64,000 nt of DNA from Chloroflexota bacterium (lineage in GTDB: Bacteria > Chloroflexota > Anaerolineae > Anaerolineales > UBA11858): assembly GCA_018263575.1 (NCBI GenBank), contig JAANWX010000002.1:7552-71551 (forward strand), in the 5' to 3' direction. The notes under the pieces were generated by a model. The model was not told the origin of the DNA and searched no databases. It worked only from the letters and a program-made list of their open reading frames with translations. Each line of letters starts with the position of its first letter. Positions within the stretch are counted from its first letter, which is position 1. Made by a program: the position numbers and the translations under genes. Positions 1,951 to 63,469 of this stretch are shown piece after piece.

Positions 1951-3768
1951 CTACCCCACCAACTCTTCCAACCTATCCACAACTTCAGCCAGCGACGCGA
2001 AGGCCTTCTCCACAGGTTCGGGAGTAGTGAGGTCAACGCCGGCAGCCTTGAGGGCATCTAGCGGGTAGGCCGAGCTTCCCGCTTTCAGAAAATCGAGGTA
2101 ATCCTCAGCGGCATTCGGTTCCCCAGCCAGGACGCGGTCGGCCAGGGCGTGGGCGCCGGAGATTCCCGTGGCGTATTGGTAAACGTAGAAGTTCATGTAC
2201 ATGTGCCCAAACTGGGCCCAGGTGATGCCGATACGGTCGTGATCGAAAGCGATTTCTTCGCCGTAGCCTTCCTCGAAGAGATCGGCGGTCAAATCGGTCA
2301 TGCTTTGGGCATTGATGGGGGCGCCTTGTTCGGCGCGTTGGTGCATCTCCAGTTCGTAGCGCGCCAGGGTGGGCATGATGAAGAAGTAACGGTGGAAGTT
2401 GGACATGGTCTCTTCGATAAGGGCCAACTGGAAGGTGGGATCATCCTGAGTACGGAAGAGATAATCGCGCACCATGGCCTGGTTGAAGTTGGACGCCACC
2501 TCGGCCACAAAGAGGGAATACCGGCCATAGACGAAGGGCTGATTCTTGCGGGTCAGGTAGGAGTGCAGGGAATGGCCTAATTCATGGGCCAATGTGCTCA
2601 GGCTGAAGACATCGTCAGCATAACTCATCAGAATGAAAGGCTGCGTGTCATACCCGCCGCCGGAAAAAGCACCCTTGCGCTTGCCTTTGTTTCGGGAACG
2701 GTCTACCCAACGATTTTCCAGACAACCTTTACGGAGTGTCTCCACATACTCCTCGCCGAGGGGCGCCATGCCCTCGCAGATCCAATCCACGGCTTGGCGG
2801 TAGGGGATTTGGGGTTGGGCCTCCACCAGGGGAGCTTTGATGTCGTAAACGTGAAGCTGGTCATAACCCAGTGCCTCTCGGCGCACTCGCCAGTAACGGT
2901 GCCAGGTGGGCAAGTTCTCCTTGAAAACCTCAATCAGGTTATGGAAAACTTCGGTGGGGATGTTGTTGGGGAAGAGGGAGGCCTCCAGGGAGGAGTCGTA
3001 ACGGCGGGCGCGGGCGTTGAAGACATCTTGTTTGAAGGCCCCGGTTTGCACGCCGGCCAGGGTGTTCTTGAAAGCCAAGTAGCCGTCGGCGTAATTTTCC
3101 CAGGCTGTGCGGCGAACCTCGCGGTCATCGTGGGTGATAAGGCCGCGGATGCTGCTTTGCCCGACCTCCATTTCTGAGCGAGAATCGCCGCCGTCCCCGC
3201 CGCAGGCGGGTTCAAATTCCAGGTCAGCGTTGGTCAATGCGTTGTAGGTAGAAAAAGAAGTATTGAGCGGATCCATGGCCATGGCCAAGACTTCCTCCAC
3301 TTCAGAAGAGCGGACATGTTTCTTCTTTCGTTCGAGGTCTTCGAGGTATTGCCTGTAAATGGCCAAATCCGGCTCACCGTCCAGCCAGGCGAATAGGGTC
3401 TCGAAGCCGATGGCCATTAGCTCTGGCTCCACGAAGGCGGCGGCGGTGGATGCCTGAGCCATCAAACTTCGCCCCTGTCCGGAGCGTGCCGCGGCATCCT
3501 GGTTGGAGACATCCACGGAGCTGGCCAGCATACCGTAAACGATCACTTTTTGGGCCAGCCGCAAGGTTTCTTCCATTTTCGTGAGACAAGCCAGCAAGGT
3601 CTTAGGGCCTTGCTCCAGGGTGCCTTCGAATTCTCTCAGCGAGGGGAGTTTGGCTTTCACTTCCTCGTAGGCCGTTTGCCAGTCTTCAACTGTAGAAAAG
3701 ATGCTTTCGATATTCCAGGTTTCTTCGAAGGGGACTTCATTGCGTGCGGGTAGGATAGTTTTTGGCAT
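1951..3768 (-). CDS. pepF: Oligoendopeptidase F (M3B metallopeptidase)
   Basis: HELGH zinc motif (LAHELGHSLHS). The start is moved to MPKTILPARNEVPFEETWN (ATG 3768), which is preceded by aaggaatttatt. The track's 27-aa N-terminal extension just translates the (GGTGATG)n array. Confidence 0.9.
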   Translation of the reverse strand: MPKTILPARNEVPFEETWNIESIFSTVEDWQTAYEEVKAKLPSLREFEGTLEQGPKTLLACLTKMEETLRLAQKVIVYGMLASSVDVSNQDAAARSGQGRSLMAQASTAAAFVEPELMAIGFETLFAWLDGEPDLAIYRQYLEDLERKKKHVRSSEVEEVLAMAMDPLNTSFSTYNALTNADLEFEPACGGDGGDSRSEMEVGQSSIRGLITHDDREVRRTAWENYADGYLAFKNTLAGVQTGAFKQDVFNARARRYDSSLEASLFPNNIPTEVFHNLIEVFKENLPTWHRYWRVRREALGYDQLHVYDIKAPLVEAQPQIPYRQAVDWICEGMAPLGEEYVETLRKGCLENRWVDRSRNKGKRKGAFSGGGYDTQPFILMSYADDVFSLSTLAHELGHSLHSYLTRKNQPFVYGRYSLFVAEVASNFNQAMVRDYLFRTQDDPTFQLALIEETMSNFHRYFFIMPTLARYELEMHQRAEQGAPINAQSMTDLTADLFEEGYGEEIAFDHDRIGITWAQFGHMYMNFYVYQYATGISGAHALADRVLAGEPNAAEDYLDFLKAGSSAYPLDALKAAGVDLTTPEPVEKAFASLAEVVDRLEELVG

Positions 3769-3790
3769 AATAAATTCCTTGTTTAGTAGA

Positions 3791-3819
3791 TGGGGTGATG
3801 GGGTGATGAGGTGATGAGG
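3791..3819. repeat. Heptamer tandem array (GGTGATG)n
   Basis: tggggtgatggggtgatgaggtgatgagg, lying between the nadE stop and the pepF start. Confidence 0.8.
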
Positions 3820-3941
3820 TTTTTCTAAGCTAGAGCAGGAGGGGCACATCCTGCGGGCGGGGTATGGAGAATGGCCAAGCTCAGAATGAGCCGCCCTCAG
3901 AGCAGAAATTTGGGCATAACCCCGTGAATTTCTAGAGAACT

Positions 3942-4754
3942 TTAGGCAAAGGCGGGGAGGTTTTCTAGCGTAATCAGGGATTGTTGACCGATAGAAGCGG
4001 TGGGTGTGGGGAGAGTCTTGAAGCGGTAGCCTTTGGCCCGGCTGATGACCGTGTCCACAAACTCCTCCGCGAAACCAGCTCGGAGAGATTCTTCCACTGT
4101 GGCCCCTTCTTCCACCAGCAGGTGAAGCAGCTTGTCGACCGCTTCGTACGTGAAACCGAGTTCATCTTCATCGGTCTGGCCCGGCCACAAATCGGCGGAG
4201 GGAGGTTTGGTGATGATCTCTTCAGGGATGCCCATGGAGGCGGCTAATTGGCGCACTTGGGCTTTATATAGGTCGGCCAGCGGATTAAGGTCACAGGCCG
4301 CATCGCCGTGGAGGGTGGCGTACCCTAAGAGGATCTCGGTCTTGTTGCCGGTTCCTATCACCAGGCCCTGGAAGGCGGCCGCTTGGTCATAGATGCACGT
4401 CATGCGGATGCGGGCCATGACGTTTCCCCGGCGGACCGGCCCCGCCTTCGGGAAGTGGGCCAAGACAGCGTCAACCGCCTCGGTTATGGGGAGGGTCTGA
4501 GAGCGCACGCCCGTGGCCTCGATAACCATTTGGGCGTGTGCCAGCGATTCGGGAGAAGAAGTCTCATAAGGCAAGCGCAGGGCGAGGACATTTTCAGCCC
4601 CCAGGGCTTGGGCGGCCAGGTAGCAGCTTAGCGCGGAGTCTATGCCGCCGGAGAGGCCCAACACGGCACGCGTGAATCCGGCCGCGGAGAGGGTGTCGGC
4701 GAGGAAAGTGGTAAGTTGTTGTTGGGCTTTTACAGGGTTGATTTTTAAGGACAT
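3942..4754 (-). CDS. nadE: NH3-dependent NAD+ synthetase
   Basis: SGGIDSAL PP-loop motif. The start is moved to MSLKINPVKAQQQL (ATG 4754). The upstream 69 codons in the track translate the repeat array. Confidence 0.9.
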   Translation of the reverse strand: MSLKINPVKAQQQLTTFLADTLSAAGFTRAVLGLSGGIDSALSCYLAAQALGAENVLALRLPYETSSPESLAHAQMVIEATGVRSQTLPITEAVDAVLAHFPKAGPVRRGNVMARIRMTCIYDQAAAFQGLVIGTGNKTEILLGYATLHGDAACDLNPLADLYKAQVRQLAASMGIPEEIITKPPSADLWPGQTDEDELGFTYEAVDKLLHLLVEEGATVEESLRAGFAEEFVDTVISRAKGYRFKTLPTPTASIGQQSLITLENLPAFA

Positions 4755-4810
4755 GGGGGTGAGGTGATGAGTAATGAGTGATGAGTAATGAGTGATGGGG
4801 TGACGAGGGG
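4755..4810. repeat. Heptamer tandem array (GTGATGA/GTAATGA)n abutting the nadE start codon
   Basis: gggggtgaggtgatgagtaatgagtgatgagtaatgagtgatggggtgacgagggg. It fills the entire lgt-like/nadE gap. On the mRNA strand it is almost G-free and has no SD. Confidence 0.85.
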
Positions 4811-4815
4811 CGAGA

Positions 4816-5619
4816 TTATTCTCCGGAGGATGGCTCCTTTGGCTCCTCTGGTTCTTCTGCCTCCTCTCCCAGCGCAAAAAATGCCACAGCGGCGGCAATG
4901 GTGAAGATAAGGGTAAACCAGCTCTCCCAGCGCAGCCTCCATAGGTAGGGAGCCGGGTCAACGCGGAGGAGGGAGACGACCAGGTTGATCAGGGAGATGC
5001 CGCCCACGCTCAGGATGGCGGCCTGCCCCGGAGATGGTGACTGGTTGCGGTCCCGCAAAAGTTCCACGCCCAGGATAAGTCCCGCGCTGAGGACGGCGGC
5101 CACCGGCTGGAGGGGCCAACGATCCCCCACTGCTCCAAATTGGTCACGGACGGGAATCGTCCACCATCCCTCGGCTGGCGGCCCGTAGGCGCAGCCTTCC
5201 CCCCAACAGGCCAACCAGGCGCTGAAGGCCAGTGTGCCCAGGAGCGGGAGCAGGGCATCGGCTAATTTACCGGGATGATGTTTGGTGACCAGGCTGATCA
5301 ATCCCAAGGCGAGGAGACCGCCCAGTAATGCGCCGGGCCAGCTTAATCCCCCCAACCAAATTTGTGGGATTTCTGGGGCGTTAGCAGTGAAGTAGGCCCA
5401 ATTGCGGAGCACGAATCCCCCCCGCGCACCCAGTAATGCGCCCAGGCTGAGGCCGATTCCGGCATCCAGGTAGAAGATTTTACGCTCGGAGGCACGCCAG
5501 GCGGTGAGGAGGAGGCCGAGAATGGCCCCAGCCGTGGTTAGGATGGAAAATAGGGATAGGAATTGGGGAAGTTTTTGAATACTCACAGGGCAATAATACC
5601 ACATTTGGTTTGGTATCAT
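4816..5619 (-). CDS. Prolipoprotein diacylglyceryl transferase (Lgt)-like membrane protein, divergent
   Basis: It aligns by eye with E. coli Lgt blocks: LGALLGARGGFVL vs LGVFLGGRIGYVL, and IWLGGLSWPGALLGG vs VWDGGMSFHGGLIG. It has an acidic E/P-rich tail. The exact start is uncertain. Confidence 0.5.
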   Translation of the reverse strand: MIPNQMWYYCPVSIQKLPQFLSLFSILTTAGAILGLLLTAWRASERKIFYLDAGIGLSLGALLGARGGFVLRNWAYFTANAPEIPQIWLGGLSWPGALLGGLLALGLISLVTKHHPGKLADALLPLLGTLAFSAWLACWGEGCAYGPPAEGWWTIPVRDQFGAVGDRWPLQPVAAVLSAGLILGVELLRDRNQSPSPGQAAILSVGGISLINLVVSLLRVDPAPYLWRLRWESWFTLIFTIAAAVAFFALGEEAEEPEEPKEPSSGE

Positions 5620-8223: not shown

Positions 8224-9474
8224 ATGAATATGAATTTTGACTTAGAACGCGAGGTACCCATTTTGGAATGGGAGACGCATATGTCTGCCCGAGCAAAAGG
8301 GATGAAAAGTTCAGCCATTCGAGAACTACTTAAGCTAACGAGCCAGCCTGATATTATCTCTTTTGCGGGAGGTCTCCCCGCACCCGAGTTTTTTCCTCTG
8401 CGCGCAGTAGATGAAGCGTGCCGGCATGTAATAAAAGAGAATGGTGCGGAAGCGCTTCAATATAGTGCTACGGAAGGCTATCAGCCGCTCAAGGAATTTT
8501 TAGCCAATCAAACGCATAAATACGGTGTACCGGCCAAACCAGAAAATGTGCTTCTGACCAATGGATCCCAGCAAGCCCTCGACCTGCTTGGCAAAGTTTT
8601 CATTGACCCAGGTCGCTTTGTGCTTACGGGACGCCCTACCTACCTAGGCGCCATCCAAGCCTGGAATGCTTACCAGGGACGATTCCACACCATGCGCGTT
8701 GACGAGGAAGGGATGATTGTCGATGAAATTGAGCACGCATATGAGAAAGTACTAAAAGAAAATGGGAAGCCGCCAGCTTTCATCTACGTGCTTCCTAACT
8801 TCCACAACCCGGCCGGGACAACGCTATCGTGGAAACGACGCGAAAAATTAGCTGAGATTGTCACAAAACTCAATCTCCCTGTCGTTGAGGATGATCCCTA
8901 TGGCCAATTGCGGTATGGGGGAGAAGACATCCCCCCCATCTGCACCCTGATTCCAGAGCGCACAATCTACCTGGGTACGTTCTCAAAAACCTTGGCGCCA
9001 GGATTGCGCTTGGGTTGGATCATTTGCCCAGAGGTGCTCATGCAGCGTTTTATACAGGCAAAACAGGGCAGCGATTTGCACACCCCCACCTTTGCCCAAT
9101 ACGTGACCAACGATATTTGTCAACGGGGATTGCTCAAACCTCACATCCAACATCTGCGTGGCGTTTATAAGAAGCGCAGGGATACCATGCTGGATGCCTT
9201 AGAGGAATTCTGGCCTGAAGGGTGTAGCTGTACCCACCCTGAAGGAGGATTATTCTTATGGGCTAAGGTTCCCGAGACCATTGATACAAATGTCTTCTTT
9301 AGAGAATGGGCATTAAAAGAAAAAGTGGCCTATGTGCCTGGTGTGAATTTTTATCCCAACGCGGATGGCGGCAAGCATGCTATGCGCCTCAACTTCTCCT
9401 ACGCCCCACCAGAGACAATTGTAGAAGGCATCCGCCGACTAGGGGTTGCTCTGAAAAAGGCCTTGGCAGAATAA
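8224..9474 (+). CDS. PLP-dependent aminotransferase, class I/II (2-aminoadipate/aromatic/kynurenine aminotransferase-like)
   Basis: RBS ggagg lies 6 nt upstream. The segment GMKSSAIRELLKL, ...NFHNPAGTT and FSKTLAPGLRLGW (PLP lysine region) support the call. Confidence 0.8.
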   Translation: MNMNFDLEREVPILEWETHMSARAKGMKSSAIRELLKLTSQPDIISFAGGLPAPEFFPLRAVDEACRHVIKENGAEALQYSATEGYQPLKEFLANQTHKYGVPAKPENVLLTNGSQQALDLLGKVFIDPGRFVLTGRPTYLGAIQAWNAYQGRFHTMRVDEEGMIVDEIEHAYEKVLKENGKPPAFIYVLPNFHNPAGTTLSWKRREKLAEIVTKLNLPVVEDDPYGQLRYGGEDIPPICTLIPERTIYLGTFSKTLAPGLRLGWIICPEVLMQRFIQAKQGSDLHTPTFAQYVTNDICQRGLLKPHIQHLRGVYKKRRDTMLDALEEFWPEGCSCTHPEGGLFLWAKVPETIDTNVFFREWALKEKVAYVPGVNFYPNADGGKHAMRLNFSYAPPETIVEGIRRLGVALKKALAE

Positions 9475-9489
9475 GGTGATTTTGGATAC

Positions 9490-9518
9490 TTGCACAAGAA
9501 CACTTCGTATGTTATAAA
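9490..9518 (+). promoter_or_regulatory. Candidate sigma70-type promoter for gdhA
   Basis: TTGCAC, a 17-nt spacer, then TATAAA. It would give a 5'UTR of about 140 nt. Confidence 0.45.
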
Positions 9519-9666
9519 TTTCCGCGTTGTGTTTATCAAGCTAACGCCCCATCAATGTTGGGGTGATGGCTTTTTCAAATTAGTCTGGGAAGTATTTTGT
9601 CCCTATCCCATAAGGCAAAGGCTTCCTGAAGCAGAAGAAGGATAGTCATTAGTTTAAGGAGTATAA

Positions 9667-11022
<1,356 letters not shown>

Positions 11023-42684: not shown

Positions 42685-42906
42685 GGGGAATCAGGAAACA
42701 GGGAATCAGGAAACCAGGGGATCAGGAAACCAGGGGATCAGGAAACAGGGGATCAGGAAACCAGGGAATCAGGAAACCAGGGAATCAGGAAACAGGGACT
42801 AGTGATTGGGGCCGGTGACTAGGGGACTGGGGGACTAGTGACTAGGAGACTACCAGACTAAAGACTACCAGACTAACGACTACCAGACTAACAACTACCA
42901 GACTAA
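42685..42906. repeat. Two abutting tandem arrays: 7 x about 16 bp (GGGRATCAGGAAACMA), then a (GACTACCA/GACTAAN)n octamer array
   Basis: ggggaatcaggaaaca gggaatcaggaaacca ggggatcaggaaacca ... then gactaggggactgggggactagtgactaggagactaccagactaaagactaccagactaac... Inverted versions of both arrays occur at 53479..53580 and 53749..53783. Confidence 0.9.
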
Positions 42907-52380: not shown

Positions 52381-53478
52381 TTACTCATCACTCATCCCCC
52401 GTACAATTTCCTTCGTCATCTCCGCCGTGTTGAGCGCGGATTCCCCTGGGGTGGCGAGGTCACCGGTGCGGCACCCGGCCTTCAGCGTCTCCCCGACGGC
52501 GGATTCCACGGCCCTGGCCTCCTGCTCCAATCCCAGAGAGTGGCGCAACAACATGGCCACGGAGAGAATGGTTCCGATGGGATTGGCGATTCTCTTCCCG
52601 GCGATGTCCGGCGCCGAACCGTGAATAGGCTCATACATGCCGCGTGGGTTTCCGTGCCGGTTCCGGGATTCTCCCAGGGAGGCGGACGGCAAATTGCCCA
52701 TCGACCCTGTCAGCACCGAGGCCTCGTCGGTGAGGATATCCCCAAACATGTTGGTCGTTACCATAACGTCGAAAGTGGCCGGGCGGGTGATCAGGTGCAT
52801 GGTGGCGGCGTCCACGAGCAGGGTCTCGAACTCGATTTGGGGATATTCCTCGGCTACCTGGGTGACCGTCTGCCGCCACAGCCGCGAGGTTTCCAGGACG
52901 TTGGCCTTATCCACCGAGGTAACTTTTCCGCGCCGCTCCCCGGCCAGTTGAAAGGCCAGGTGGGCGATGCGGCGCACTTCACTCTCAGTGTAGGCCATCG
53001 TGTCCACCGCTTGGGTTTCACCGTTGACCTGGCGGCGCTCCCTCGGCCGGCCAAAGTAAATCCCCCCCGTCAGCTCGCGCACGACCAACAAATCCACCTC
53101 GGGGAGCAAATCCGGGCGCAAGGGGGAGGCCGAGAGCAACTCCGCGTGGGGCTTAACCGGGCGCAAATTGGCAAAAAGCTCCAGCCCTTTGCGCAGCCCC
53201 AGCAGGCCCTGTTCCGGGCGGACGGGAGCGGTGGGATCATCCCACTTGGGACCGCCCACGGCGCCCAACAGGATGGCATCCGCCTGGCGGCAAGCGGCCA
53301 ACGTCTCTTCGGGGAGCGGGTCTCCCTCCGCGTCAATGGCCGCCCCGCCGACAAGATGGGTCTCCATTTTAAAAGTATGATCAAAAATATCTGCTACAGC
53401 TTCTAAAACTTCTTGCCCGGCGGCGACAACTTCGCTTCCGATGCCGTCTCCGGGGAGTAATATGATGGTTGGGTTCAT
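52381..53478 (-). CDS. leuB: 3-isopropylmalate dehydrogenase
   Basis: [12 protein letters not shown] and [12 protein letters not shown] motifs. There is no SD upstream, because the octamer array abuts the ATG. Confidence 0.95.
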
Positions 53479-53580
53479 AGTCTTTAGTCTGGTAGTCTGG
53501 TAGTCTTTAGTCTGGTAGTCTCGTAGTCTGGTAGTCTGTAGTCTTTAGTCTGGTAGTCCGGTAGTCTCCTAGTCACTAGT
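53479..53580. repeat. Octamer tandem array (CTGGTAGT/CTTTAGT)n abutting the leuB start
   Basis: agtctttagtctggtagtctggtagtctttagtctggtagtctcgtagtctggtagtctgtagtctttagtctggtagtccggtagtctcctagtcactagt. This is the reverse complement of the 42840..42906 array type. Confidence 0.9.
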
Positions 53581-53732: not shown

Positions 53733-55340
53733 TCACTGATTCCTGCTTCCCTGTTCCCTGTTCCCTGTTCCCTGTTCCCTGTTTCCCTGCTCCTTAAGCA
53801 ACGCATGCTCCATACTATCGGCCAAGGCGCGCCAACTGGCTTCGATGATGTTCGTGCTGGCCCCGACTGTGCTCCAGCGATCCTTGCCGTTTTTGGTATC
53901 GATCAACACGCGCACATTGGCGGCCGTGCCGCTTTCGCTGTCCAAAATGCGCACTTTGTAGTCATCCAGCCGAATCTCCTTCAGGCGCGGGTACACGTCC
54001 ACCAGGGCCTTGCGCAGGGCCGCGTCCAGGGCATTGACCGGGCCATTACCCTCCGCCGCTGTGTGAAATACGCGATCGCCAATACGCACCTTGACCGTGG
54101 CCTCGGCAAATACCCCGCGACCCTGGCGGTGCTCCACCACGACCATAAAATCGATTAGCTCGAAAGGTTTTTGGTAATGGGGTTGATTGCGACGCACCAT
54201 CAAATTAACGGAGGCTTCTGCGCTCTCGAATGTAAATCCCTGCGCCTCCAACTCTTTGATCTCTTTCACCACCGCCCGCGCTTGTTCCCGGTTCACGTCC
54301 AGCCCAAATTCGTGGGCCTTGTCGATCACGTTCCCGCGCCCGGAAAGTTCCGAAACCAGGGTGCGCCGGTGATTGCCCACCAGGGCGGGATCAATGTGCT
54401 GGTAAGCGTCTTCGTTCTTGAGCACCGCCGCCACATGAATGCCCCCCTTATGCGCGAAGGCTTTTTTCCCCACAAAGGGCAGGTAGGGATTGGGCGTCTG
54501 GTTGGCAACTTCGTCCACATAATACGAGAGATCGGCCAGCCCGGCCAGGTTTTCTGGGGGGATGCAGGGGAGGCCCATCTTCAATTGCAGGTTGGGGATG
54601 ATGGTGCACAGATTGGCGTTGCCCACCCGTTCCCCGTACCCGTTGACCGTCCCCTGGACGTGAACTGCCCCGGCGTGGACGGCCGCCAGCGTGTTCGCCG
54701 TCCCGTTGCCCCCATCGTTGTGGGCGTGAACCCCCAGGGGAGTGTCGAGTTCCTGGCCGACTTGGCCGGTGATCTCCCCAATCTCCCAGGGCAGCGACCC
54801 GCCGTTGGTATCGCAAAGCACCAAGACATCCGCCCCGGCCTCAGCCGCGGCCCGGAGCGTGCCCAGCGCGTAATCGGGATTGGCCTTATAACCGTCGAAG
54901 AAATGTTCCGCGTCGTAGACGACTTCTTTGCCATGGGCCTGCATGTAGGCCACGCTCTCTTCGATCATGGCCAAATTTTCTTCCGGGGTTGTTTCCAGCA
55001 CATCGTGGACGTGCAGTTCCCAGCTTTTCCCAACCAGGGTGACCACAGGCGTCCCCGCCGCGAGCAAGGCCTGGAGATTAGCGTCGTCTTCCGGGAGAGT
55101 GTCCTTCCGTCGCGTGGACCCAAAAGCGGCAATTTGGGCGTTTTCCAGGTCCAGGGAGCGGGCGCGTTCGAAGAACTCAGCATCCTTGGGGTTGGAACCC
55201 GGCCATCCCCCCTCGATGGTGTCGATGCCAAACTGGTCCAGACGCCGGGCAATCTTCAACTTATCGTTCACAGAAAGCGAGATACCCTCGCTCTGTGTAC
55301 CGTCTCGGAGGGTGGTGTCGTAGATAGAAATGTTAGACAT
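53733..55340 (-). CDS. cimA: (R)-citramalate synthase (LeuA-family, CimA-type)
   Basis: MSNISIYDTTLRDGTQSEGISLSVNDKLKIARRLDQFGIDTIEGGWPGSNPKD, at about 535 aa with a C-terminal LeuA_dimer-like domain. The tail EQGNREQGTGNREQGSRNQ is encoded by the (CCCTGTT)5 array at 53749..53783. Confidence 0.85.
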   Translation of the reverse strand: MSNISIYDTTLRDGTQSEGISLSVNDKLKIARRLDQFGIDTIEGGWPGSNPKDAEFFERARSLDLENAQIAAFGSTRRKDTLPEDDANLQALLAAGTPVVTLVGKSWELHVHDVLETTPEENLAMIEESVAYMQAHGKEVVYDAEHFFDGYKANPDYALGTLRAAAEAGADVLVLCDTNGGSLPWEIGEITGQVGQELDTPLGVHAHNDGGNGTANTLAAVHAGAVHVQGTVNGYGERVGNANLCTIIPNLQLKMGLPCIPPENLAGLADLSYYVDEVANQTPNPYLPFVGKKAFAHKGGIHVAAVLKNEDAYQHIDPALVGNHRRTLVSELSGRGNVIDKAHEFGLDVNREQARAVVKEIKELEAQGFTFESAEASVNLMVRRNQPHYQKPFELIDFMVVVEHRQGRGVFAEATVKVRIGDRVFHTAAEGNGPVNALDAALRKALVDVYPRLKEIRLDDYKVRILDSESGTAANVRVLIDTKNGKDRWSTVGASTNIIEASWRALADSMEHALLKEQGNREQGTGNREQGSRNQ

Positions 55341-55350
55341 GGAGTTCTCC

Positions 55351-55437
55351 TGGTGGGTTGGTGGACTGGTAAATTGGTGGATTGGTCTAATCGGTGGACT
55401 GGTAAATTGGTGGATCGGTATATTGGTCTAATTGGTC
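55351..55437. repeat. Degenerate octamer array (TTGGTGGA/CTGGTAAA)n upstream of cimA
   Basis: tggtgggttggtggactggtaaattggtggattggtctaatcggtggactggtaaattggtggatcggtatattggtctaattggtc. Confidence 0.9.
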
Positions 55438-55646: not shown

Positions 55647-55674
55647 TTACTCATTACTCATTACTCATTACTCA

Positions 55675-56262
55675 TCACTCTTCACTCCCTTCAAAAGCAG
55701 CAATCTCCGCTTCGTGCTTGAGCAAGTACCCCAATTGATCGATGCCCTCGAGCAGACACGTTTTGCTAAAGGGATCAAGGGGGAAAGCGGCCTCCGTCCC
55801 ATCTGGGAGTTTCACCGTTTGGGCGGGGAGGTCGATGCGCACCTCCAGGGAGGGAGCAGAGTCCAGCGCGGCGGCCAGTTTGGCGTGGGTTTCCGTGTCC
55901 ACCGTCACCGGGAGCAGGCCGTTCTTAAGGGCGTTGTTATAAAAAATATCGGCGAAGGAGGTGGCAAGGATGGCCCGGATCCCCCATCCGGCCAATGCCC
56001 AGGGAGCGTGCTCCCGGGAAGATCCGCAGCCAAAATTATCACCCGCCAACAGAATTTGCGCCTCCGCGTATTGGGGCTGGTTGAGGGGAAAATCCGGGTT
56101 TGGATCCCCATCGTCCAGATACTGCCACCCGGCAAACAACCCTTCGGCCAGACCGGCCTTATCGGTCACTTTCAGGTAGCGGGCGGGGATGATTTGGTCG
56201 GTGTCGATATCGTCCCGGAGGAGGGGGATTACGGGGGAGGTTAGGGTTTTGAATGGGTTCAT
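55675..56262 (-). CDS. leuD: 3-isopropylmalate dehydratase small subunit
   Basis: 195 aa, ..GDNFGCGSSREHAPWAL... There is no SD upstream, because an array abuts the ATG. Confidence 0.95.
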   Translation of the reverse strand: MNPFKTLTSPVIPLLRDDIDTDQIIPARYLKVTDKAGLAEGLFAGWQYLDDGDPNPDFPLNQPQYAEAQILLAGDNFGCGSSREHAPWALAGWGIRAILATSFADIFYNNALKNGLLPVTVDTETHAKLAAALDSAPSLEVRIDLPAQTVKLPDGTEAAFPLDPFSKTCLLEGIDQLGYLLKHEAEIAAFEGSEE

Positions 56263-56328
56263 TAGTCGAGTAGTTGGTAGTCGAGTAGTCGTTAGTCGGG
56301 TAGTCGTTAGTCGTTAGTCTGGTAGTCA
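56263..56328. repeat. Hexa/heptamer array (TAGTCG/TAGTCGT)n abutting the leuD start
   Basis: tagtcgagtagttggtagtcgagtagtcgttagtcgggtagtcgttagtcgttagtctggtagtc. Confidence 0.9.
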
Positions 56329-56477: not shown

Positions 56478-57899
56478 TTACTCTTCACGTTTCACGTCTC
56501 CACACATCACTCTCGGATCTATGACCTTTCCAGCCACAGCCGACGCCGCCGCGGTGAGAGGACTGGCCAAAAAGGTGCGCCCTCCCGGCCCTTGGCGGCT
56601 TTCGAAGTTGCGGTTGCTGGTGCTGACCGCGTATTGGCCAGGGGATAGTTGGTCCCCGTTCATGGCCAGGCACATGCTGCAACCGGCGTGGCGCCATCCC
56701 GCGCCCGCTTGCCGGAAGACCTCATCAAGGCCCTCGGCCTCAGCCTTTCGGCGGACGTTCCCAGAACCGGGGACGACCAACATGCGCACCCCTTCGGCGA
56801 CTTTTCGCCCGCGCAGCAAGTCAGCCGCGGCGCGTAAATCGTTGAGGCGGCCGTTGGTGCAGCTCCCCAGGAAAACAACATCAACCGGATGGCCTTGCAA
56901 GGGCTTTCCTGGCGCCAAGTCCATGTAGCGGAGGGTTTTTTCCAGTGCCGCGCGCCGGTCCGGGTCACTTTCCCTCGCCGGGGTGGGGATGGGTTGGCGG
57001 ATCGGCCCGCCCATGGCCGGGTTGGTGCCGTAGGTGATCATCGGTTCCAGCGCGGCAGCGTCCAGGGAGATTGTTTGGTCGTAGCTGGCCCCCGGGTCGG
57101 AGGAGAGATTCCGCCAACGGTCCAGGGATTCTTCCCAGGCTTCCCCCACCGGCGCGGAGGGACGTCCCCGCAGATAGGCGAAGGTGGTCTCGTCGGGAGC
57201 GACCATCCCCGCCCGCGCCCCGGCCTCGATGCTCATGTTGCACAGCGTCATGCGCGATTCCATATCCAGGGCACGCACGGCCGGGCCGGTGAACTCGATC
57301 ACGTGCCCGGTCCCGCCGCCCACCCCAATCTCAGCGATGAGGGCCAGAATCATATCTTTGGCAGTGACTCCGGCGCCGAGTTGGCCTTCGAAATGAACGC
57401 GCATGGTCTTGGGACGATTTTGGAGCAGGCTTTGGGTGGCCAGGACGTGTTCCACCTCGCTGGTGCCAATCCCAAAGGCCAAGGCCCCGAAAGCGCCGTG
57501 GGTGGAGGTGTGGCTGTCGCCGCAGACGATGGTCATCCCCGGTTGAGTCAGGCCCTGCTCCGGCCCCACAACATGGACAATGCCGCGCTGGGGGTCATTC
57601 AGGTCGTAGAGGTGAATCCCAAAATCCCGGCAATTGGCCTGTAACTGGCGGATTTGCTTTATACCCTGTTCATCCATGGCCGCCAGAGAGAGTTCGATGG
57701 TGGGGGTGACGTGATCCATGGTCGCCACGGTCTGCTCCGGGCGGCGAGTGGGCAGCCCCTTTTCCCGCAAGCCGTTGAACGCCTGCGGCGAGGTGACCTC
57801 GTGAACCAGGTGCAGGTCAATATAAAGCACAGCCGGGGAATCGGGTTCCTGGAGGACTACGTGAGCGTCCCAGATTTTTTCAAAGAGTGTTTTTGGCAT
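56478..57899 (-). CDS. leuC: 3-isopropylmalate dehydratase large subunit
   Basis: [27 protein letters not shown] 57899..57897 overlaps the TGA of the upstream micro-ORF (UGAUG). The track alternative is GTG at 57902. Confidence 0.95.
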
Positions 57900-58096
57900 C
57901 ACTTCGTCAACTCAGACATGCTCCACTTCTCGGGAAAAGTGCGCGGTTTAGGAAATTTTTCCATCGCGCCATTTCCATTGGATTTCGCCGGCGTGATGAG
58001 GTGCTTGTCGGAGATCATCTCCGCCGTGTTCCACTTTGCGGGATAGGTGCGGGGTTTGGGGAATTTTTCAAATACATACTCAGTTTTTTTAGACAT
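57899..58096 (-). CDS. 65-aa protein of unknown function with two EKFPKPRT(Y/F)P.KW repeats, embedded in the leu operon
   Basis: SD AAGGAG begins immediately after the leuA TAA, 8 nt before the ATG, and the stop overlaps the leuC ATG. The two repeat copies differ mostly at synonymous third positions. Confidence 0.6.
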
Positions 58097-58107
58097 TTTT
58101 CTTCTCC

Positions 58108-59745
58108 TTAAACAACAATTTCAGCTTCCTGCTCAAGATACTCTCGAGCAGCAATTAACTTGTTCAACCCGGATAGATAAGCCTTGGCGCTGGCAACGAT
58201 GATGTCGGTATCGGCCCCGTAACCGCCAAAGGATCGGGCGTGGCTGCGTCCGCTTTGGGGCGAGGTGCGGCGGGGGATGGAACCGTTTTCGGGCTTGAGG
58301 CGCACGGTCACTTCCCCGATGGCGTCAATCCCCTCGGTGACGGCGTTGACGCTGAACTCCAGCAAGGTGTTGGGGACTTGGAGGACGTCGTCGATGGCCT
58401 TGTAGGCCGCGTCCACGGGACCGGTGCCGACCGAGGCCTGAACGTACGTTTCCCCTTCCGGGCCATGGAGGCGCACCGTGGCGGTGGGAAGCCCCATCGT
58501 CCCGCAGGCCACCTGTAAACCGGCCAGGCTGTAAATCTGCTTGGCCTGGTACATTTGATCTTCCACCAGCACTTCCAGGTCGGCGTCGGTGATGGTCTTC
58601 TTCTTGTCGGCCACTTGCTTGAAACGCTGGAAAGCTTCCGCCAACTCGTCCTCGCCTAGGTCGAATCCCAACTCCTCCAACCGGGTCTTGAGGGCGTGAC
58701 GCCCAGAGTGTTTGCCCAGCACCAACCGAGAGCGGCTCAGCCCCACCGTGGCGGGGAGCATGATCTCGTAGGTGTTGTTATTCTTCAACATGCCATCCTG
58801 GTGAATGCCCGCCTCGTGGGCAAAAGCGTTGGCGCCGACGATGGCCTTATTGGGCTGCACCGGCATCCCCGTGTAATTGGAGATCATGTGGCTGATCCGG
58901 GTGATTTGTTTGGTGTCGATGCCCGTCTCCAGGGCGTAAACCGGGTGGCGGGTGTGGAGGGCCATGACCACTTCCTCGAGGGCAGTGTTCCCGGCCCGTT
59001 CCCCCAGACCATTGACGGTGACTTCGGCCTGGCGTGCCCCGGCCATGATCCCGGCCAGGGTGTTGGCGGTGGCCAAGCCCAGGTCGTTGTGGCAATGCAC
59101 CGAGACGGTCACTTCCTCGATGCCGGGGACGTTGGCCATGATCCCGGCAATGAGATCGCGGAACTCATCCGGGGTGGTGTACCCGACCGTGTCGGGGATG
59201 TTGAGGGTGGTGGCCCCGGCCCGGATGGCGGCTTCCAGTACCCGGTACAAGAAAGCTGGTTGGCTGCGGCCGGCGTCCTCGGGCGAGAACTCCACGTCAG
59301 CGCACAAGGCGTGGGCGTAGGCCACCATCTTGGCGACGCGGGCCAGGACTTCTTCCGGGGACATGCCCAGCTTGTGCTCCATGTGGATGGGTGAGGTCGC
59401 CAAGAAGGTGTGGATGCGGGGACTGGCGGCTGGTTGGACGGCTTCCCAGGCGGCGTCGATGTCCGCTTCGGTGGCCCGGGCCAGGCCGCAGATGATGGGG
59501 GGAGGGGATTCCCCCGCCTCGCCCCCCCGTGGCGTGTTGCCCACCTCCTGCGCGATGCGGTAGACGCCCTGGAAATCGTCCGGGGAGGCCACTGGAAAAC
59601 CGGCCTCGATGATGTCCACCCCCAAACGCGCCAGGCCCCGGGCGATCTCCAACTTTTCGGGAGAGGTCAGGGTCGCGCCGGGAGATTGTTCTCCATCGCG
59701 TAAGGTGGTATCAAAAATGCGGACGTAGTTGTTAGGTTTTGTCAT
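58108..59745 (-). CDS. leuA: 2-isopropylmalate synthase
   Basis: [14 protein letters not shown] and [13 protein letters not shown] motifs, plus a C-terminal LeuA regulatory domain. Confidence 0.95.
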
Positions 59746-59772
59746 AGTTTTTTATGTGTGAGTGGCAACGAG

Positions 59773-59807
59773 CATGTGGCATGTGGCATGTGGCATGTGG
59801 CATGTGG
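59773..59807. repeat. Five perfect tandem copies of CATGTGG
   Basis: catgtgg x5 (hand count), flanked by degenerate copies, lying between the ilvC stop and the leuA start. Confidence 0.95.
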
Positions 59808-59820
59808 TATGTTTTACTCT

Positions 59821-60834
59821 TCACTCTCCCGGCTTAATCGTCACCGGTTCTACAAAAGGCATCATGGAGCGTAGTTCCGCGCCAACTTTTTCGATGGTCT
59901 CTTTTTGCTCTTTTGCACGCTGCTCGTTGAACCAGGGGTGGCCTTGTTGGTTTTCTTCAATCCAAATTTCGGCATAAGTGCCGTCTTGAATGTCGCTTAG
60001 GAGTTGGCGCATGGTGGCGCGGGTTTCATCGGTGATGATCTTAGAACCGGCGTAATAATCACCGTGTTCGGCGGTGTCAGAGACGGAGTAGCGCATGTAG
60101 TTCAGGCCGCCGCGATACATGAGGTCAACGATAAGCTTGAGTTCGTGCATGCACTCGAAATAAGCCAGTTCAGGCTGATAACCAGCCTCGGTGAGGGTTT
60201 CGAATCCGGCTTTGACGAGGGAGGAAACGCCACCGCAGAGTACAGCTTGCTCCCCAAAGAGGTCGGTTTCGGTTTCTTCGGCGAAGGTGGTTTGCACGAC
60301 TCCAGCGCGCGTGGCGCCAATCCCCCAGGCGTAAGCGATGGCGTTTTCTTTCGCGCTTCCGTTGGCATCTTGGTGAACGCCTAAAAGGGAGGGGGTTCCC
60401 CCGCCTTCCGTGAAAATCTCACGGACACGGTGCCCGGGTGCCTTGGGAGCAACCATGCTAACGTCCACATTTTCGGGCGGGGTAATTGTTCCGTAGCGGA
60501 TGTTGAATCCGTGGGCGAACATGAGGGTTTTTCCCGCGCTCAGGTGTGGTGCAATGTGCTCGGTATAAACTTGTGGTTGGCGCGTGTCAGGGATAAGCAC
60601 CATGATCGTATCTGCCCAGGCTGAGGCTTCGGCTACGGTACATACTTCTAAGCCCTCCGTTTCTGCCTTTTTCCAGGATTTACTGCCTTCTCGCAAACCG
60701 ACCCGCACGTCCACGCCGTTGTCATGCAGGTTAAGACTGTGGGCGTGTCCTTGAGAGCCGTATCCGAGCACGGCGACTTTTTTGTTCTTGATCAGGTCGG
60801 GGTTAGCGTCTTTGTCGTAATAGATAGTTGCCAT
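59821..60834 (-). CDS. ilvC: Ketol-acid reductoisomerase (class I)
   Basis: [21 protein letters not shown]. 337 aa. Confidence 0.95.
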
Positions 60835-60846
60835 TTTTAGTTCCTT

Positions 60847-61018
60847 GGTTTGGTGGGTTGGTAGGTTGGTAGATTGGGAAATTGGGAGATTGGGAAACTG
60901 GTGGATTGGTAGATTGGAAGACTGGTGGGTTGGGAAATTGGGAAATTGGCAGATCGGTTCCTAACTCGCAATTCGCAGCTCGCAACTCGTCACTCCTCAC
61001 TCCTCACTCCTCACTCTC
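60847..61018. repeat. Long degenerate array (TTGGKWRR octamers) followed by (CTCGCAA)n/(CACTCCT)n heptamers
   Basis: ggtttggtgggttggtaggttggtagattgggaaattgggagattgggaaactggtggattggtagattggaagactggtgggttgggaaattgggaaattggcag...ctaactcgcaattcgcagctcgcaactcgtcactcctcactcctcactcctcactc. The last part supplies the ilvN tail and stop. Confidence 0.9.
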
Positions 61019-61533
61019 CCCCCATTGGCGCCGGGGGTGTGGCGAATGCCGACGTGGTCACCGCGCATCATGACCACTCGTCCTGTGCGCACCAGTTCCA
61101 GGATGCCGAGGGGGCGCAATAACTCGACCAAGCCTTCGATTTTGTCTTCCGTGCCGGTGATTTCCACGATCACGGAATCGGGCGCGACATCGACGATGCT
61201 GGCCCGAAAGATGGAGGCCAAGTTGGCGATCTCGGTCCGCTGTTCGGGCGTGGCTTTGACCTTGATGAGGACTAAATCTCGCATCACGGCCGGTTGGTTG
61301 GTGACGTCTTGGACGTCGATGACGTTGACCAACTTATAAAGGTTGGCCTCTACGGTGCGGGCGTCAACATTTTCGCTGTCCATGACGATGGTCATGCGCG
61401 AGATGTCGGAACGATCCGTGTGCCCGACGTTGAGGGATTCGATGTTGAAATTCCGGCGGCGAAACAGCGAGGCGATGCGGTTGAGGACGCCGGGGCGGTT
61501 TTCCATAAGTGCAAATACAGTTTGTTGTTGCAT
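60997..61533 (-). CDS. ilvN: Acetolactate synthase small (regulatory) subunit
   Basis: ACT domain, MQQQTVFALMENRPGVLNRIASLFRRRNFNIESL. The tail GGRVRSEE is repeat-encoded. Confidence 0.9.
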   Translation of the reverse strand: MQQQTVFALMENRPGVLNRIASLFRRRNFNIESLNVGHTDRSDISRMTIVMDSENVDARTVEANLYKLVNVIDVQDVTNQPAVMRDLVLIKVKATPEQRTEIANLASIFRASIVDVAPDSVIVEITGTEDKIEGLVELLRPLGILELVRTGRVVMMRGDHVGIRHTPGANGGRVRSEE

Positions 61534-61658
61534 GTTTTCTCCTTCACTTTTAAGCTGGACGCTGATGAACGCTGAGAACGCGGATTCTTTTTTTGGTTTT
61601 TCTCCGTGCTTGTCCGTGCTCCTCTGCGTCCTAAATGAGACTGTTGGGGAGCGATAAG

Positions 61659-63356
61659 TCAGCTTGCTGGTTCCCGGGTGATAGGGCGGCGGATCATGGC
61701 ATCCAGATCTGCGCCAGAAGGGACCAGGGGGTAAACGTTGTCTTCTTTTTCGACGACGAATTCGAGTACCACGGGACCTGGGGTTTCCTGGGCAAACTTA
61801 ATGGTGGGGGAAACTTCATCCGGGGTTGTAGCTCGTTTTGCGGGAACGCCATGGGCTTCGGCGATTTTCACGAAATCCGGCCCGGTCAGGGCTGTGGATG
61901 CGTAGCGTTTGTCCATGAATAATTCTTGCCATTGGCGCACCATACCCAAATAACTGTTGTTGAGAATGGCGACCTTGATGTTGGCTCCTTCTTGGACGGC
62001 GGTGGAGAGTTCAGCTTGGCTCATTTGGAAGCTGCCATCACCATCGATCAGCCAGACGGCTTTGTCTTGGTGGGCAAACCAGCTCCCAATGGCGGCCGGC
62101 AAACCAAAGCCCATCGTTCCCGTTCCGCCAGAGGTGATCAACCGGTAGGGTTTGTCAAAACGATAATATTGAGCCGCCCACATCTGGTGTTGTCCCACGC
62201 CGGTGGCCAGGATGGAGTCGCCTCCGGTGGCTTTCCACAAAGCGCGCACGGCATGAGCGGCGTGCAGCTTGCCATTAACGGGCTGGGACATGATGCTGCG
62301 CTCTTCCGTTTCTTGTCGCCAGGCGGCAATTTGCGTTTTCCAATCCTCGTGTTCGGATTCCTCCACCAGGGGGATTAAATCAGTGAGCACCGTCTTGAGA
62401 TCGCCCATGAGGGGAACATCCACTTCCACGTTCTTGTGTACCTCGGAAGGGTCAATTTCGATGTGGATTTTGCGCGCGCGGGGGGCATAGGTGCGCAGTT
62501 TTCCCGTCACCCGATCGTCGAAGCGCATCCCATAGGCCAACAGCAGGTCGGCGTTTTGGATGGCGTTGTTGCAAAAGGCTTCCCCGTGCATGCCCATCAT
62601 GCCCAGGCTGAGGGGATGGGAGGCGGGGAGGGCGCCCAGTCCCAGCAGAGTCATGGCGACGGGCGTTTGGGTCTTGGTGGCAAAGATCTCGAGCTCTTTC
62701 ATAGCTCCCGACATGAGCACGCCGTGTCCCGCCAGGATGACGGGGCGTTCGGCTTTTTCGATCAGCTTGACCGCTTCCGCCAGATCCTTTTCGGGGGCGT
62801 GTTGGGGAGGTTGGTACCCGGGGAGGGAAATTTCATCAGGGTATTCGAACTCAGTTTCTTCGAATTGGGCGTTCTTGCAAAAATCGATCAACACAGGGCC
62901 GGGTCGTCCGCTGCGGGCGATGTGAAAGGCTTCCCGTACGACCTGAGCGACCTCGCTGGCACTGGTGACCAGATAATTGTGCTTGGTAATCGGCAAGGTG
63001 ACGCCGGTGACATCGACCTCCTGAAAAGCGTCCCCGCCGATGAGGTGGGCGGGAACCTGCCCCGTGATGCACACAATGGGCGAGGAATCCATCATAGCGG
63101 TGGCGATGCCGGTGACCAGGTTCGTGGCCCCTGGGCCGGAGGTAGCCAGCGCCACGCCCACCCGACCAGAGGCCCGCGCGTAACCATCGGCCATGTGCGC
63201 CGCGCCCTGCTCGTGGCGGGGAAGGACGTGGTGAACCGGGTATTTCAACATGGCGTCGTAGACGGGCATAATGGCCCCGCCGGGATAACCAAAAACGGTA
63301 TCAACCTCTTCGCGTAATAAACATTCCCATAAAATTTCTGCTCCAGTTTTTTTCAT
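61659..63356 (-). CDS. ilvB: Acetolactate synthase large (catalytic) subunit
   Basis: The start is moved to MKKTGAEILWECLLREEVDTVFGYPGGAIMP (RBS aaaggagag). The ThDP motif GTMGFGLPAAIG...IDGDGSFQM is present. Confidence 0.95.
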   Translation of the reverse strand: MKKTGAEILWECLLREEVDTVFGYPGGAIMPVYDAMLKYPVHHVLPRHEQGAAHMADGYARASGRVGVALATSGPGATNLVTGIATAMMDSSPIVCITGQVPAHLIGGDAFQEVDVTGVTLPITKHNYLVTSASEVAQVVREAFHIARSGRPGPVLIDFCKNAQFEETEFEYPDEISLPGYQPPQHAPEKDLAEAVKLIEKAERPVILAGHGVLMSGAMKELEIFATKTQTPVAMTLLGLGALPASHPLSLGMMGMHGEAFCNNAIQNADLLLAYGMRFDDRVTGKLRTYAPRARKIHIEIDPSEVHKNVEVDVPLMGDLKTVLTDLIPLVEESEHEDWKTQIAAWRQETEERSIMSQPVNGKLHAAHAVRALWKATGGDSILATGVGQHQMWAAQYYRFDKPYRLITSGGTGTMGFGLPAAIGSWFAHQDKAVWLIDGDGSFQMSQAELSTAVQEGANIKVAILNNSYLGMVRQWQELFMDKRYASTALTGPDFVKIAEAHGVPAKRATTPDEVSPTIKFAQETPGPVVLEFVVEKEDNVYPLVPSGADLDAMIRRPITREPAS

Positions 63357-63373
63357 GTTCTCTCCTTTGATTT

Positions 63374-63469
63374 TGGTATGTTGGTGGACTGGTAAACTGG
63401 TAAATTGGTGGATTGGTTCCCAGTTTCCCGATATACCAATCACCAATCTACCGACCTATACCAATACCG
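63374..63469. repeat. Imperfect long inverted repeat made of TTGGT/ACCAA units between ilvD and ilvB
   Basis: The left arm is ggtatgttggtggactggtaaactggtaaattggtggattggtt. The right arm is accaatcaccaatctaccgacctataccaatacc, roughly the reverse complement with indels. Confidence 0.75.

Follow-up and report, generated by a model that had tools for sequence, protein, structure and literature searches.

A conserved two-motif small protein whose gene separates leuA from leuC in branched-chain amino-acid operons of Anaerolineae

Introduction

Does branched-chain amino-acid biosynthesis, which is regarded as a closed textbook pathway without accessory proteins between LeuA and LeuCD, include an additional small protein in some bacteria? 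This question is raised by a stretch of 64,000 nucleotides (nt) from a Chloroflexota bacterium (Anaerolineae; Anaerolineales; UBA11858; GenBank assembly GCA_018263575.1, contig JAANWX010000002.1, positions 7,552 to 71,551), which is referred to below as the window; coordinates are those of the window unless another locus is named. On its minus strand, an open reading frame (ORF) with a translation of 65 amino acids (aa), here designated X, lies between leuA and leuC. X is a genuine gene whose peptide is under purifying selection, and it represents a previously unnamed, conserved and strongly selected family of small proteins. Its members are encoded mid-operon in a large and abundant bacterial class with few cultured representatives, and their constant position between the first two leucine-pathway genes hints at a helper or regulator that has gone unnoticed in a pathway considered completely understood. 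Taken together, sequence comparison and structure prediction point, with slightly less than even confidence, to X being a translated Anaerolineae small protein that would serve as a disordered bivalent ligand and modulate a neighbouring oligomeric enzyme.

Evidence for a selected small gene

X and its parts occupy the following positions:

57899..58096, minus strand: X coding sequence, a 65-aa two-motif small protein (basis: ORF and translation, homologues, ratio of nonsynonymous to synonymous substitution rates (dN/dS) and openness of the frame)
58104..58109, minus strand: Shine-Dalgarno (SD) sequence of X, AAGGAG, the first two bases of which are also the final two of the leuA TAA
58016..58072, minus strand: motif copy 1, residues 9-27 (F12, P13, T17, P19 and W22 invariant in the homologue alignment; family logo)
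57965..58015, minus strand: variable linker, residues 28-44 (length and sequence vary across the family; the block of the structural model with the lowest predicted local distance difference test (pLDDT) scores)
57908..57964, minus strand: motif copy 2, residues 45-63 (E46, F48, P49, P51, P55 and W58 invariant in the homologue alignment)

By searching 5.8 billion proteins directly, an identical protein was found, annotated only as 'hypothetical protein [Chloroflexi bacterium]', together with 38 further homologues (39 in total) of 65-84 aa that show 33-45% BLASTP identity. In their alignment, a variable linker separates two blocks in which F, P, T, P and W are invariant. Searching 1.84 billion cluster representatives with a profile returned 129 matches at 50% identity, or about 126 without three spurious ones, nearly all of which are 51-123 aa long, and the window X scores 71 bits against the family profile. 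A second profile search gave 295 clusters at 90% identity. Among the spurious matches, two large proteins (P0040 and P0127) contain Cna-B/SpaA-like repeats and align only over 'ETVPxGWDLT', and the third (P0114) is a low-complexity sequence. No match to X could be found in Pfam, NCBIfam or PDB sequences, and no paper with the X motif strings or with a small gene between leuA and leuC was found in the searchable literature. X illustrates how annotation pipelines leave conserved small genes uncalled or labelled as hypothetical proteins.

In every locus for which DNA was available, the reading frame of X opens with ATG and is uninterrupted. It is open in 23 of 23 distinct orthologous loci, compared with 0-9 of the 23 for the other five frames. 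Pairwise Nei-Gojobori dN/dS values of X, taken from pairs with unsaturated synonymous divergence (dS), range from 0.06 to 0.20. In addition, (A)GGAG is located 6-9 nt before the X ATG in nearly every locus, and the SD sequence of X is the strongest of the operon, with a match of at least 5 nt in 20/23 loci versus 1/21 for leuA, 3/22 for leuC and 2/21 for leuD. X is probably translated at a high level.

Synteny and distribution

Loci containing X were gathered by exact-protein look-ups, a one-genome-per-species scan and a metagenome scan seeded with LeuC, and their contexts were analysed by tblastn and the hidden Markov model (HMM) of the family. Both neighbours of X are visible in 32 of the 39 distinct loci, and the order is leuA-X-leuC in all 32; the remaining seven, in which one side is on the contig, fit the same order, and there are no exceptions. 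The X proteins of these loci are only about 25-50% identical to that of the window. Contiguity of leuA-X-leuC is maintained even in a locus (L033) with two genes inserted elsewhere in the operon. Moreover, no instance of the motif occurs outside X in the six-frame translations of 114 loci and of the whole 64-kb window, and no LeuA-X or X-LeuC fusion is present among the profile-search matches.

Every organism label attached to X members reads Anaerolineae, Anaerolineales or unclassified Chloroflexota. Where LeuA shares 66% identity or more with that of the window, 13 further loci contain X and six lack it (L037, L040, L043, L046, L049 and L065); in these six, leuA and leuC overlap or are separated by at most 126 nt. 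X was never present in more distant operons. The six loci are scattered among X-containing ones in a clustering by LeuC similarity, which implies repeated loss or gain of X; its absence from such close relatives indicates a dispensable accessory component, not an obligatory subunit. X is therefore both lineage-specific and dispensable.

The initial annotation had regarded the ORF as a genuine operon-embedded gene with selection acting on the peptide, and had proposed a homologue search with inspection of leu operons and an estimate of dN/dS across orthologues. The homologue family, the leuA-X-leuC order of all inspected loci, the low dN/dS with a frame intact throughout and the conserved SD sequence bear this view out.

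Several loci show further variation in operon content. In L033, the insertions are an ATP-binding cassette (ABC)-type ATPase gene between ilvC and leuA (3699-5267) and a citrate synthase gene between leuC and leuD (8792-9937), the latter of which splits the isomerase subunits. In two Anaerolineales species, a complete gene for ATP-dependent phosphoenolpyruvate carboxykinase (pckA, 532-535 aa; L008 2318-3925 and L017 2354-3952) lies between leuA and X in the same orientation; the L017 contig ends before leuC. Another locus (L025) has a variant X (1476-1643) with one good motif and a degenerate second one (…RPSTYGW…), and although its leuA is the usual one, its leuC and leuD (422 and 168 aa; 35% and 45% identity) belong to another type. 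Finally, ilvC in L021, L022 and L023 is only 32-34% identical to that of the window, presumably representing a different ketol-acid reductoisomerase (KARI) class, compared with 60-75% identity for the other operon genes, which indicates a mosaic operon history.

Junctions with leuA and leuC

The leuA stop codon TAA occupies 58110-58108, and the GGAG of the X SD sequence ends 7 nt 5' of the ATG at 58096. AAGGAG had been described as starting immediately after the TAA; the hexamer is present, but it begins within that stop codon. At the other end, the X stop codon TGA (57901-57899) and a leuC ATG (57899-57897) share one base (A), which forms UGAUG, just as first described. The program-made ORF list starts leuC at an upstream GTG (57902), and the ATG is likely to be the true start in view of the residues with which LeuC homologues begin.

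X had also been called translationally coupled. This description holds for the window, but the family as a whole does not conserve the coupling: the distance from X to leuC ranges from an overlap up to 148 nt and is at most 30 nt in about half of the loci, and the stop/start overlap is confined to the window genome and a few others.

Two co-varying motifs on a predicted disordered chain

The 13-residue copies EKFPKPRT(Y/F)PxKW of the window X correspond to residues 10-22 and 46-58. Six codons (7 nucleotides) differ between them, and four of the six codon changes are synonymous, in agreement with the first reading of the sequence. Across the family, the motif extends over about 19 residues, P-[ED]-x-F-P-x-P-R-T-Φ-P-x-G-W-D-Φ-S-x-L, in which F, T, P and W are conserved at 96-100%. 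The window X has both motifs with all invariant residues, a variable linker and the leuA/leuC flanks that define the family. Members range from 51 to 162 aa, the F-to-F spacing of the two motifs from 33 to 79 residues, and the number of residues after the motif-2 Trp from about 2 to 50, depending on the lineage. The C-termini are also variable (…SELTK, …WSIDD, …HSDDRN, …SGLKK or extensions of about 45 aa), and the terminal residue is not conserved.

An AlphaFold2 model based on the 39-sequence alignment has a mean pLDDT of 66.5 and a predicted template modelling score (pTM) of 0.17. It is a coil without strands, broken solely by a short turn of helix that follows the Trp of each motif. The composition of the family is likewise unusual, with W enriched 4.6×, P 2.4×, and S and K also enriched, L, I and V at 0.33-0.49×, and a mean net charge of -4. 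Among its 65 residues, the window X has 2 Leu and no Cys; across the family, Cys accounts for 0.5% of residues and no Cys position is conserved. X is thus predicted to be an intrinsically disordered chain presenting two short linear motifs on a variable linker. An alternative account of the composition, the sparing of branched-chain amino acids during starvation, was rejected: the depletion of L, I and V is only what is expected of any disordered protein and is uninformative.

The two motifs are not independent of each other. Over a set of 63 non-redundant members, motif 1 and motif 2 from the same X agree at 10.43 of 19 positions, compared with 8.92 ± 0.17 (maximum 9.54 in 2000 shuffles) when motif 1 and motif 2 partners are shuffled. 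The excess likeness resides at the variable positions, and lineage-specific oddities, such as V or T for the second Pro and S for the first Pro, recur in both copies. At the DNA level, the two copies within a gene are saturated at synonymous sites, with pooled proportions of synonymous (pS) and nonsynonymous (pN) differences of 0.74 and 0.25. Thus, the likeness appears to be kept by selection, and recent gene conversion is ruled out as its cause by this pS. The simplest reading is that both motifs would bind equivalent sites of a homo-oligomeric or repeated partner.

Some members carry additional sequence. A subfamily of 115-127 aa (P0064, P0095, P0101, P0193 and P0198; loci L028 and L033) has an extension of about 45 residues after motif 2 that contains …LALERERME…LSLSVD…, and in P0189, P0190 and P0236 (138-162 aa) about 60 residues of flanking sequence are duplicated along with the motif.

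With regard to the origin of X from a neighbouring enzyme, hhalign comparisons of the family with LeuC (E = 0.54), LeuD (E = 0.39) and LeuA (E = 0.9) were not significant. The segment picked by hhalign in LeuC is its N-terminus (57870-57899), which loosely resembles the X core PRTFPEKW(D/S) with a one-residue offset. This likeness may be due to chance or may be a trace of an origin of X from the 5' end of leuC.

The surrounding operon

X belongs to a minus-strand operon with the order ilvB-ilvN-ilvC-leuA-X-leuC-leuD-second LeuA-family synthase (citramalate-synthase-like)-leuB, as assigned by Pfam. Its other genes are:

58108..59745, minus strand: leuA, 2-isopropylmalate synthase, the gene upstream of X and a candidate for its partner (Pfam HMGL-like, HCS_D2, LeuA_dimer)
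56478..57899, minus strand: leuC, isopropylmalate isomerase large subunit, downstream neighbour (Pfam Aconitase)
55675..56262, minus strand: leuD, isomerase small subunit (Pfam Aconitase_C)
53733..55340, minus strand: 'cimA', the second LeuA-family synthase, citramalate-synthase-like (Pfam HMGL-like and LeuA_dimer)
52381..53478, minus strand: leuB, isopropylmalate dehydrogenase (Pfam Iso_dh)
59821..63446, minus strand: ilvC, ilvN and ilvB, upstream genes of the same operon (Pfam KARI, ALS_ss_C/ACT, TPP_enzyme)

The position of cimA is kept in related loci. The inspected operons hold only ilvD/B/N/C, leuA, X, leuC, leuD, cimA, leuB and ilvE, and neither an ATP-grasp ligase nor a nonribosomal peptide synthetase (NRPS) gene was found in them.

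Tandem arrays of 7-8 nt units are present in nearly every ilv-leu intergenic spacer of the window, and the unit differs between spacers (e.g. TAGTCTGG ×10.8, TTGGGAGA ×12 and GCATGTG ×5.9). The arrays are located at 53478-53574, 53742-53793, 55351-55427, 55647-55687, 56263-56327, 59762-59812, 60850-60958 and 60985-61016; another lies at 42686-42906. On the mRNA strand, the spacer arrays are C/A-rich and G-poor and stand just 5' of start codons. The X interval is the sole inter-enzyme interval that lacks a 7-8 nt tandem array.

Examination of the 20 nt upstream of each gene in the window and in L001-L029 revealed two classes of translation start within one operon. A clear SD sequence precedes ilvC, X and cimA, and leuA, leuC, leuD and leuB are mostly SD-less with CA-rich leaders; half of the operon may thus initiate translation independently of an SD sequence.

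Proposed role and alternative explanations

In the preferred reading, X would be a trans-acting bivalent ligand whose motifs each dock onto one of two equivalent sites on an oligomeric enzyme encoded alongside. A homodimer of LeuA, and perhaps the paralogous CimA as well, is the candidate target, ranking somewhat ahead of LeuCD. Binding would clamp or modulate the enzyme, with a possible effect on its stability, its allosteric feedback or the partition of flux between leucine and citramalate/isoleucine. Since close relatives manage without X, it would be a modulator and not an essential subunit. The regulator, chaperone or subunit of LeuA or LeuCD that the initial annotation suggested is a putative role, which draws on synteny, the bivalent-motif architecture and a modest rate covariation with LeuA.

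Evidence on the partner comes from several comparisons. Among 29 taxa, pairwise distances of X correlate with those of LeuA at r = 0.80, with a partial correlation of 0.55 after removing LeuC and LeuD, compared with r = 0.67 (partial -0.06) for LeuC and 0.68 (partial -0.05) for LeuD; the bootstrap difference between the LeuA and LeuC correlations is 0.13 (0.055 to 0.225). In the 13-taxon set having all genes, the highest correlation is that with CimA (r = 0.875). LeuA-family synthases are homodimers, and a LeuA homodimer would therefore suit a bivalent ligand. The locus L025, where X stays beside leuA though leuCD is of another type, also counts for LeuA. A strict screen of LeuA, LeuC and LeuD for specificity-determining positions between operons with and without X revealed nothing X-specific, and a relaxed screen for columns conserved only in X-containing operons gave six in LeuA (window positions 7, 275, 280, 322, 391 and 394) and one each in LeuC and LeuD. 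On these sequence comparisons, LeuA (possibly also CimA) would be a somewhat more likely partner of X than LeuCD.

Several points weigh against a bivalent ligand of LeuA. Older gene conversion followed by synonymous drift could also yield the co-variation of the two motifs. Mirror-tree correlations are noisy, and a shared recombination history of leuA and X could explain them. The surplus of X-specific columns found in LeuA lacks statistical significance (p = 0.16), and the six close relatives without X show no visible compensating change in LeuA, LeuC or LeuD. Gene adjacency slightly favours LeuCD: overlaps or gaps of at most 30 nt are somewhat commoner on the leuC side of X than on the leuA side, X overlaps the leuC start in the window, and the pckA insertion in L008 left X 15 nt from leuC.

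A more ambitious proposal holds X to be the first dedicated protein-level regulator of leucine/citramalate synthesis, either a disordered bivalent clamp on both protomers of the LeuA (or CimA) dimer or a bridge between synthase and isomerase, that would tune feedback inhibition or the division of flux between the leucine and isoleucine branches, to which LeuCD and LeuB are common, and whose motif would constitute a new class among bacterial short linear motifs; this appears doubtful at present. If X binds a pathway enzyme, it would provide a bacterial case of disordered bivalent short-linear-motif regulation, which is best known from eukaryotes and CP12. It would also offer a defined 19-residue peptide directly testable in vitro, and would bear on the engineering of leucine- and citramalate-derived products.

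A target of X outside the leucine pathway is unlikely. According to this explanation, X would be a passenger, for example a disordered stress or adaptor protein, riding in a highly expressed operon slot. It agrees with the lack of a direct link of X to any enzyme, the lack of convincing specificity-determining positions in LeuA, LeuC and LeuD, the repeated loss in close relatives and the lack of similarity to the neighbouring enzymes. On the other hand, a passenger would hardly be expected to occupy an invariant leuA/leuC position in 39 loci at about 25-50% X identity with no copy elsewhere, or to diverge in step with LeuA beyond the contribution of LeuC and LeuD.

A function in cis is improbable. 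X would then be an efficiently translated ORF ahead of the SD-less leuC, to which it would deliver ribosomes or at which it would position them; ribosomes may pause at its Pro/Trp motif in response to a metabolite, and the peptide would be a nascent-chain signal and not a free protein. The strength of the X SD sequence fits this explanation, as do the leuC SD matches, which reach at least 4 nt in just 4/22 X-containing loci and are rarer in operons with X (8/34) than in those without it (25/57; p = 0.07). The UGAUG overlap in the window, the gap of at most 30 nt in about half of the loci, the constant placement of motif 2 near the C-terminus and the proline-rich nature of the motifs are also in line with it. 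However, X-leuC spacers reach 105-148 nt and carry hairpins of -21 to -63 kcal/mol in several lineages, which means that coupling is not conserved, and anything from about 2 to about 50 residues may separate motif 2 from the stop codon. Conservation is equally strong in the N-terminal and the C-terminal motif, and the two co-vary; an arrest peptide would need neither property. SD-less initiation is general in this operon, since leuA, leuD and leuB also have SD-less, CA-rich leaders, and no Rfam element or attenuator was found in the window region and six related loci.

Some of the X-leuC hairpins are long and near-perfect (L009 4169-4316, L012 4250-4383, L013 4169-4305 and L016 4163-4298), with energies of -45 to -63 kcal/mol over 134-148 nt and no Rfam match. 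They could be palindromes resembling repetitive extragenic palindromic (REP) sequences or miniature inverted-repeat transposable elements (MITE), or elements that process or stabilise the mRNA.

It is highly improbable, and largely refuted, that X is a LysW, an MbtH-like protein or a leu leader peptide diverged past recognition. One metagenome source labels an X homologue 'YbdZ (MbtH family)', the P-x-G-W-D stretch resembles part of the MbtH profile, and LysW genes lie beside LeuA-like and LeuC-like genes in amino-acid (lysine) biosynthesis clusters. Against this, MbtH scores are below the cut-off and X has no predicted fold; X lacks a Cys zinc ribbon and a conserved acidic tail and has no ATP-grasp or NRPS neighbours; and it contains only 2 Leu in 65 residues and is encoded inside an operon.

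The notion of a chance frame in a non-coding leuA-leuC spacer, which could invoke the shortness of the ORF and the six close relatives without X (leuA-leuC spacer from a 17-nt overlap to 126 nt), is already refuted by the homologue family, a dN/dS of about 0.1, the conserved SD sequence and the exclusively open frame, and retains practically no probability.

Comparison with known systems

Leader and arrest peptides (leu leader, TnaC and SecM-type) resemble X in being short ORFs before a biosynthetic gene with Trp/Pro near the C-terminus, and the overlap in the window adds to this likeness. A leu leader was rejected: X is internal to the operon, after ilvBNC and leuA, and has no run of regulatory codons. 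An attenuator was likewise rejected in view of the 1-nt overlap with leuC in the window and the lack of an Rfam match. For an arrest peptide, the motif-to-stop and ORF-to-leuC distances are too variable, and a second motif is N-terminal. Spacer hairpins are present in some lineages only.

LysW, the gene neighbourhood of which is similar, is a four-Cys zinc ribbon with an acidic C-terminal tail (Glu end) that carries the substrate, and it works with an ATP-grasp ligase of the LysX/ArgX type. X has no Cys and no conserved acidic tail, and its operons contain no such ligase; membership in the LysW family was therefore rejected. The initial annotation had judged X not to be LysW-like, and this judgement holds for the family.

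MbtH-like proteins are encoded in a biosynthetic cluster beside the enzyme that they bind and activate, and form a compact folded domain with three invariant tryptophans (PMC3537567). They share with X a small size (about 60-90 residues for MbtH), conserved Trp and a local P-x-G-W-D stretch, on which the 'YbdZ (MbtH family)' label rests; this label was rejected. None of the 39 members matches the MbtH-like profile (PF03621) at E <= 1, and of four more, a single one reaches 11 bits (E = 0.29), where the cut-off is 27. MbtH-like proteins have a folded β/α domain and NRPS adenylation partners, whereas no fold is predicted for X, which repeats a linear motif with a single invariant Trp in each copy and is encoded in a primary-metabolism operon, all inspected contexts being ilv/leu operons. 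X is thus not a member of the MbtH family, but as a small, Trp-marked protein with a gene next to that of its putative partner enzyme it may be functionally analogous.

AcnSP of Synechocystis is a 44-aa regulator that alters the kinetics of aconitase; it derives from the N-terminus of AcnB as a recent partial duplicate and is plasmid-encoded away from its target (PMC7336809). The likeness to X lies in the very small size and in the target, which belongs to the aconitase superfamily that includes LeuC, the immediate downstream neighbour of X. Unlike AcnSP, X is not significantly similar to any of the enzymes LeuC, LeuD and LeuA (E >= 0.39 by hhalign), is strictly syntenic and is bivalent.

CP12 is a conditionally disordered scaffold of about 80 residues that binds GAPDH and PRK and regulates both (PMC9406205, PMC6800369). 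Both CP12 and X are small, predicted to be disordered and poor in hydrophobic residues, and CP12 binds two oligomeric enzymes of a single pathway via separate short segments. CP12 differs in having two unlike modules, control by cysteine pairs and a gene unlinked to those of its targets, whereas X has two like motifs, no conserved Cys, an operon-embedded gene and no match to Pfam CP12. By analogy, CP12 would be the closest counterpart of X in its mode of action.

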